The notes below the pieces were generated by a model that saw nothing but the letters and a program-made list of their open reading frames with translations, searched no databases and was not told where the DNA came from. Shown one piece after another: positions 53,671-53,969 of a stretch of DNA of 64,000 nucleotides (the first letter of the stretch is position 1; each line of letters starts with the position of its first letter). The stretch is from assembly GCF_056712565.1 (NCBI RefSeq), contig NZ_CM160072.1, one strand, 5' to 3'. The translations under genes and the position numbers were made by a program.

Positions 53671-53746
53671 GCGGGAATAGCTCAGTTGGTAGAGCACGAC
53701 CTTGCCAAGGTCGGGGTCGCGAGTTCGAGTCTCGTTTCCCGCTCCA
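53671..53746 (+). tRNA. glyV: tRNA-Gly (GCC)
   Basis: GCGGGAATAGCTCAGTTGGTAGAGCACGACCTTGCCAAGGTCGGGGTCGCGAGTTCGAGTCTCGTTTCCCGCTCCA. Confidence 0.95.
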
Positions 53747-53782
53747 AAATTTGAAAAGTGCTGTAAAGCACAGACCACCCAA

Positions 53783-53858
53783 GCGGGAATAGCTCAGTTG
53801 GTAGAGCACGACCTTGCCAAGGTCGGGGTCGCGAGTTCGAGTCTCGTTTCCCGCTCCA
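53783..53858 (+). tRNA. glyX: tRNA-Gly (GCC)
   Basis: identical copy, 36-nt spacer. Confidence 0.95.
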
Positions 53859-53893
53859 AAATTTGAAAGTGCTGTAAAGCACAGACCACCCAA

Positions 53894-53969
53894 GCGGGAA
53901 TAGCTCAGTTGGTAGAGCACGACCTTGCCAAGGTCGGGGTCGCGAGTTCGAGTCTCGTTTCCCGCTCCA
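53894..53969 (+). tRNA. glyY: tRNA-Gly (GCC)
   Basis: identical copy, 35-nt spacer. Confidence 0.95.

Follow-up and report, generated by a model that had tools for sequence, protein, structure and literature searches.

The three tandem tRNA-Gly(GCC) genes described here are the chromosomal Escherichia coli glyV-glyX-glyY operon, which lies between orn and queG, directly upstream of datA. The array is located in a 64,000-nt stretch of DNA from contig NZ_CM160072.1 (RefSeq assembly GCF_056712565.1), which is referred to here as the window. The 1.6 kb surrounding the array show 100% identity to the E. coli ATCC 11775 chromosome, where the RefSeq annotation gives the order orn, three tRNA-Gly genes, a hypothetical ORF of 17 amino acids, queG (on the opposite strand), nnr, tsaE and amiB; the genes annotated by RefSeq within 3 kb of the array are mscM, asd, rsgA, orn, queG, nnr, tsaE and amiB. 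Moreover, orn and queG flank the array in all records inspected, including those of four other strains. We are all but sure that the biology of the glyVXY operon, that is, its promoter, the processing of its transcript, gene dosage, recombination among its repeats and leaky termination into datA, explains the feature. This biology has been published: the feature is real, was correctly read by the first-pass annotation and is already known. The first-pass annotation named neither glyVXY nor the known connection with datA just downstream.

Several observations concern the neighbourhood of the operon. The 17-amino-acid ORF, WP_010723271.1, is located at 54203-54256 on the plus strand, inside datA, and overlaps the 3' end of the convergent queG (54239-55378, minus strand) by 18 nt; it is probably yjeV. 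The sole other tRNA gene that ARAGORN called in the window, a tRNA-Phe(GAA) gene at 24162-24237 on the minus strand, lies 29.5 kb upstream of the array and, judged by this distance from glyVXY, is probably pheU, a classic island-integration site. In the record of E. coli OHT76-1 (NZ_CP135244.1), the whole orn-glyVXY-queG query matched just a lone tRNA-Gly near 2.05 Mb, and the locus, including the essential gene orn, is apparently absent from that record; most likely, it is located on another record of the assembly or falls into an assembly gap.

All three tRNA-Gly(GCC) genes are on the plus strand, as called by ARAGORN in the window: glyV at 53671-53746, glyX at 53783-53858 and glyY at 53894-53969. 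RefSeq annotates the same three genes, and each copy matched positions 1-71, the full model, of the Rfam tRNA family (RF00005) at 69.1 bits, against a gathering score of 29. String comparison established that the 76-mers of glyV, glyX and glyY are all the same, and three exact 76-mers cannot occur by chance. ARAGORN placed the anticodon, gcc, at position 34, and the anticodon loop reads TTGCCAA; the acceptor arms, GCGGGAA/TTCCCGC, are followed by a T and then by an encoded CCA. The genes carry G1:C72, C2:G71, G3:C70, U73, C35 and C36, which, with U73 as the discriminator, we take to be the glycine identity elements. Tandem Repeats Finder described the array as a repeat with a period of 111, 2.7 copies and 99% matches (53671-53971), and a search of both strands of the window found no extra copies of the tRNA-Gly 76-mer or the spacer core. 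The coordinates, copy number and anticodon that the first-pass annotation had given for a triple tRNA-Gly(GCC) array are thus correct, as is its description of near-identical spacers of 35-36 nt: the two spacers measure 36 and 35 nt and are one A apart. A sub-threshold Rfam match to YrlA at 53808-53946 (40.3 bits versus a threshold of 69) was rejected because it spans parts of two tRNA genes along with the spacer, and because YrlA has a tRNA-like module, of which the match is almost certainly an echo.

Codon usage in the window fits such a gene set: of 1,016 glycine codons counted across 31 long ORFs, 75% are GGC or GGT. In one E. coli record, a lone 76-nt match of 100% identity near 2.05 Mb is annotated as tRNA-Gly; it is probably glyW. 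Three copies together with glyW as a fourth would give a high dosage of the isoacceptor for GGC and GGU, which dominate among the glycine codons. Expression and glycine charging have been published for the identical K-12 genes (PMC10950094, PMC4191395).

A single sigma-70 promoter about 60 nt upstream of glyV would produce one precursor that holds all three tRNA-Gly(GCC). We read this promoter at 53586-53613 on the plus strand, with the -35 element TTGCAG at 53586-53591, a 16-nt spacer and the -10 element TATAAT at 53608-53613; the -10 is perfect, and the -35 matches at 3 of 6 positions. A generic promoter consensus scan found no site at the operon because the -35 is only a 3/6 match, and the promoter call therefore rests on our reading of the sequence and on published K-12 experiments. 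A G+C-rich discriminator, GCGCCTCC, comes after the -10, and the A/T-rich tract AACTCAAAAAAAATTTTTTA (53560-53579, plus strand), which we read just upstream of the -35, is a possible UP element. We infer that the promoter is under growth-rate regulation. In K-12, RT-qPCR with primers starting CGTATAATGCGCCTCCCGTA gave a much lower signal than with primers starting AACGACGCAG, and deletion of PglyV-X-Y abolished the downstream RNA (Kasho 2024, PMC10950094). The primer signals and the promoter deletion would both put the start of transcription just after the -10 read here. The 5' leader of the primary transcript would accordingly be placed at 53620-53670 on the plus strand, with an approximate start taken from the promoter position; it contains a small hairpin (-8.4 kcal/mol, z = -2.8).

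The spacers between the tRNA genes have a common layout. Spacer 1, AAATTTGAAAAGTGCTGTAAAGCACAGACCACCCAA, is 36 nt long (53747-53782, plus strand), and spacer 2 (53859-53893, plus strand) is 35 nt long and equals spacer 1 minus one A. In each, an AU-rich single-stranded 5' part directly after the CCA is followed by a 5-bp stem-loop, GUGCU-GUAA-AGCAC, at 53758-53771 in spacer 1 and 53869-53882 in spacer 2, and then by a C/A-rich 3' part. The spacer fold, at -7.2 kcal/mol, was matched by 1 of 200 shuffles. Among the matches listed, the stem-loop recurs with different sequences in many genera of Enterobacteriaceae, with stems such as GUAUC/GAUAC, GUGUC/GACAC, AUGCC/GGCAU, UGGCU/AGCCA and GGCC/GGCC; we found no spacer hairpin in Klebsiella oxytoca, Pluralibacter gergoviae, Kluyvera or Pantoea.

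We assessed covariation in an alignment of 23 sequences, for which spacers that bear the hairpin were picked. In this alignment, both sides of all five stem pairs have changed, and 88.7% of cells are paired, as opposed to 17-45% when the partner column is slid. The observed covariation score was reached by none of 500 shuffles, for a set that was chosen for having the hairpin, that includes two spacers per genome which are not independent, and to which the structure of the E. coli sequence was applied. A MAFFT alignment of whole spacers left the group of Cedecea and Enterobacter sp. Ag1 out of register, and the trimmed alignment still misplaces the three sequences of this group; because they were scored as unpaired, the covariation test is conservative for them. 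As a possible role, the stem-loop may leave both the AU-rich site for RNase E and the leader for RNase P unpaired and prevent mispairing between identical neighbouring tRNAs. The spacer hairpin is not described in the literature that we examined.

The precursor would be matured in steps. RNase E would cleave within the AU-rich, unpaired segment that directly follows the CCA ends, after which RNase P would form the 5' ends, removing the leader, and exonucleases would trim the 3' ends to the encoded CCA; the steps assigned to RNase P and the exonucleases belong to an established pathway. The evidence on processing, like that on read-through, comes from experiments in K-12. There, RNase E was found to cut 1 nt 3' of glyY in vitro (PMC4191395), and this cut requires a single-stranded glyX-glyY spacer as well as the upstream glyX tRNA (PMC4191395, PMC9841416).

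Downstream of glyY, the operon would end in a leaky terminator, with read-through into datA. RNA folding predicted an intrinsic terminator or attenuator, TglyV-X-Y, at 53992-54028 on the plus strand: a hairpin at 53992-54019, followed by UUUUUGUUG. This element has been described as a leaky attenuator that overlaps DnaA box 1 of datA, a site located directly downstream of glyV-X-Y (PMC10950094). By a motif scan, with the identity and consensus taken from the same paper, datA occupies 53988-54237 of the window: within 270 nt after glyY, we found a perfect TTATCCACA box, three boxes that are one base off and the sequence TAACCTATTGATA. Box 1, ATATCCACA (53988-53996), is DnaA-box-like and overlaps the tRNA terminator; box 2, TTATCCACA (54055-54063), is the perfect box; the IHF site, TAACCTATTGATA, is at 54120-54132; and two further boxes, TTATTCACA on the plus strand (54217-54225) and TCATCCACA on the minus strand (54229-54237), face each other. 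In K-12, transcription that reads through from the glyVXY promoter into datA has been shown to displace IHF and to tune when replication is initiated, and either deletion of the promoter or insertion of a strong terminator after glyY lowers initiation frequency (PMC10950094). Because read-through regulates IHF binding at datA, it also bears on when replication initiates. Both the position of datA beside glyVXY and its regulation by read-through from the tRNA promoter are thus already known.

In about 30% of complete E. coli genomes (1,578-1,637 of 5,425), the normal 36 nt of spacer 1 are followed by an ERIC-like insert of 121 nt, and the first and second tRNA genes are therefore 157 nt apart; the window has no such element at the corresponding place, between 53782 and 53783. 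The insert is an imperfect palindrome that forms a long, imperfect hairpin (-41 kcal/mol). It matches 33 of 40 positions of the ERIC core, and we take it to be of the ERIC type; a search of the window for the ERIC2 primer sequence gave no match, even with as many as 3 mismatches permitted. The ERIC-bearing allele shares with the window its three tRNA genes, flanks and spacer 2, but differs from it in the 157-nt spacer 1 and in a T-to-C change in the spacer loop. Similar inserts occur in the arrays of Citrobacter youngae, Klebsiella oxytoca, Kluyvera, Pluralibacter, Silvania, Superficieibacter and Trabulsiella, in spacer 1 in some genera and in spacer 2 in others. That different spacers are occupied suggests repeated, independent insertion into the same kind of site, with the ERIC-like element inserting after ...CCA(A)T and before GATTAA.

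The comparison of copy number across strains that the first-pass annotation had proposed was run on the complete E. coli genomes in which the locus is present, 5,425 in all, and copy number was found to range from 2 to 5. Counts based on coverage, using natural or synthetic queries of two, three and four copies with 300-nt flanks, were dropped: genomes with three copies also gave 100% coverage of the four-copy query, because overlapping BLAST pieces get joined. They were replaced by array-only or short-flank queries, with E-value cut-offs set so strictly that no single alignment of lesser length could pass. By this approach, 3,712 genomes had at least three compact copies, including 18 with at least four (one of them a five-copy genome and one an odd record), while the ERIC-bearing allele with at least three copies was found in 1,578; a further 81 had exactly two compact copies with both flanks, 28 had a shortened ERIC-bearing form and 26 were unclassified. 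Three copies are thus present in about 5,272 of the 5,425 genomes (about 97%), two in about 109 (about 2%; the 81 compact and some 28 shortened ERIC-bearing forms) and four or five in 17 (0.3%; four in 16 and five in 1). The record of BL21(DE3), NZ_CP081489.1, was excluded as a genome with at least four copies since the match is not the native locus. Its region 4491873-4493465 holds three tRNA-Gly(GCC) genes and a truncated fourth beside two tRNA-Lys genes, tRNA-Ile, tRNA-Ala and hokE, and is either an engineered tRNA cluster or a misassembly.

Variants in copy number occur on several backgrounds: their flank identities fall into classes between 98.4% and 100%, and O157:H7, ATCC 25922, KO11FL and ST648 are among the strains. 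Examples of assemblies with two, four or five copies are NZ_CP007275, NZ_CP009072, NZ_CP043950 and NZ_CP157165. Two-copy arrays retain either the 36-nt or the 35-nt spacer (matched spans of 388 versus 387 nt). The five-copy array is annotated as such, and its spacers, of 36, 36, 36 and 35 nt, are as expected from duplication of a unit made up of a tRNA and spacer 1. These are the patterns that repeated unequal exchange between neighbouring tRNA repeats would give, although some of the genomes with two, four or five copies could be assembly errors. The array itself would have arisen by tandem duplication, and recombination between the 76-nt repeats would keep it homogeneous and would now and then remove or add a unit of 111/112 nt.

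Arrays of this kind are not confined to E. coli. We scanned species-representative genomes for two tRNA-Gly ends 15-45 nt apart and obtained at least 120 loci; among the matches listed, 11 had one copy (mostly cases in which a stricter regular expression found one full-length copy, for example at a contig end), 43 had two, 56 three, 1 four, 2 five, 1 six and 6 seven. Some Aeromonas arrays consist of six or seven tandem tRNA-Gly(GCC) genes in which two spacer types alternate as a two-unit super-repeat, and in two Aeromonas loci one 'spacer' holds a diverged tRNA-like copy. In 41 three-copy, short-spacer arrays of other species, again among the matches listed, the median identity of spacers within an array was 0.91, and between arrays it was 0.58 for the same position and 0.57 for the other position. 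Position in the array thus carries no signal across genera, the signature of concerted evolution. Within a genus, spacers 1 and 2 can remain diagnostically distinct, as they do in the three species of Mangrovibacter, and homogenisation is therefore slow on that timescale.

These data bear on the claim that the array is a hotspot for change in copy number by unequal recombination. Recombination within the array is real, as seen in copy numbers from 2 to 5 and in homogenised spacers, but the word 'hotspot' overstates it, given that about 97% of genomes have three copies. A stronger form of the claim is that glyVXY is a contingency locus whose copy number switches often and adaptively, with three as one of several common states. 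Such switching would fit the homogenised spacers, the presence of two-, four- and five-copy states on several backgrounds and the survival of both spacer types among two-copy genomes. It would also fit a report in which a duplication that included the gly operon was seen, in one long read, in cultures stressed with ciprofloxacin, and in which extra copies of the gly operon gave a growth benefit (PMC8811037). However, exactly three copies are found in about 97% of the 5,425 complete genomes, three is likewise the commonest number in the other Enterobacterales sampled (56 of 120 among the matches listed), the distinct spacers 1 and 2 of Mangrovibacter point to slow homogenisation on the timescale of a genus, and some of the variants may be assembly errors. 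We therefore regard a contingency locus as unlikely and favour an operon held at three copies, with rare and recurrent losses and gains. Selection might keep the operon at three copies in part because its transcriptional output feeds the downstream datA replication switch. That the spacer stem-loop is an RNA element under selection, and did not simply come along with duplication, and that the three-copy state is perhaps partly selected through the output to datA, is a tentative proposal to which we give rather less than even weight.

Two other readings concern the nature of the array. In its bare form, three repeats with 35-36 nt between them, it resembles a CRISPR array, and the first-pass annotation had warned that automated scans could mistake it for one. 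The repeats, however, are complete 76-nt tRNA genes; both spacers are one sequence save for one base, so that the true unit is a tandem repeat of 111/112 nt; no cas gene is annotated among the neighbours within 3 kb on either side; and nearly every E. coli genome has the array at the same fixed place between core genes. CRISPR-finding tools usually limit repeats by default to about 23-55 nt, and matching spacers are a standard criterion by which they reject tandem repeats. A CRISPR array in the biological sense is excluded, and because of the 76-nt repeats, the near-identical spacers and the lack of cas genes within 3 kb, a miscall by automated scans appears unlikely as well; the chance that the structure is, or would be called, a CRISPR or CRISPR-like array is negligible. 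Alternatively, genomic islands or prophages could integrate at the array, using the 3' end of a tRNA gene as attB, in which case the downstream sequence should vary among strains. tRNA genes commonly serve as integration sites. The same has also been argued in the literature (PMC8811037). Yet with 300-nt flanks, 3,796 compact and 1,637 ERIC-bearing genomes match over at least 80% of the query, the two forms together account for approximately all 5,425 genomes, no island breaks the locus, and the flanking genes are orn and queG wherever records were inspected. Since the array adjoins both flanks without interruption in essentially every genome, an island site is excluded for practical purposes, and we judge it highly improbable.

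The finding itself carries little weight, as this is a textbook tRNA operon that automatic annotation would catch. The importance of the locus is known, and lies in its supply of the major glycine tRNA, in its use as a model substrate for 'direct entry' processing by RNase E, and in the control that read-through exerts over IHF binding at datA and over the timing of replication initiation. What our analysis contributes is modest: a census that puts the three-copy state at about 97%, with rare, recurrent losses and gains; a measurement of concerted evolution from the comparison of spacers; and a spacer hairpin that covaries. Only these items are mildly new, and they are small additions rather than discoveries.

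Among known systems, CRISPR arrays share with glyVXY the periodicity of repeat and spacer and nothing else: glyVXY has long tRNA repeats, spacers that are not unique, no cas genes within 3 kb, no leader, and a locus that is conserved instead of hypervariable. The arrays of other Gammaproteobacteria are closer, since they too consist of identical or nearly identical tRNA ends arranged head to tail with spacers of 20-45 nt. They differ in copy number, which among the matches listed is mostly three in Enterobacterales, two in Acinetobacter and up to seven in Aeromonas, and in their spacers, whose sequences vary between genera and which in some genera are devoid of the stem-loop. The closest system is the K-12 operon glyV-glyX-glyY, which encodes tRNA-Gly3 (GCC). 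It has the gene order of the window, from orn through the three tRNA-Gly genes and the 17-amino-acid ORF to queG, and the same promoter region, terminator overlapping DnaA box 1, box 2 and IHF site (PMC10950094). K-12 records contain three tRNA-Gly genes and are 99.0% identical over the 899-nt locus. There is no structural difference between the two; the nucleotide differences, of about 1%, fall in the flanks only and are present because the strain analysed here is ATCC 11775. The array in the window and K-12 glyVXY are one and the same locus.
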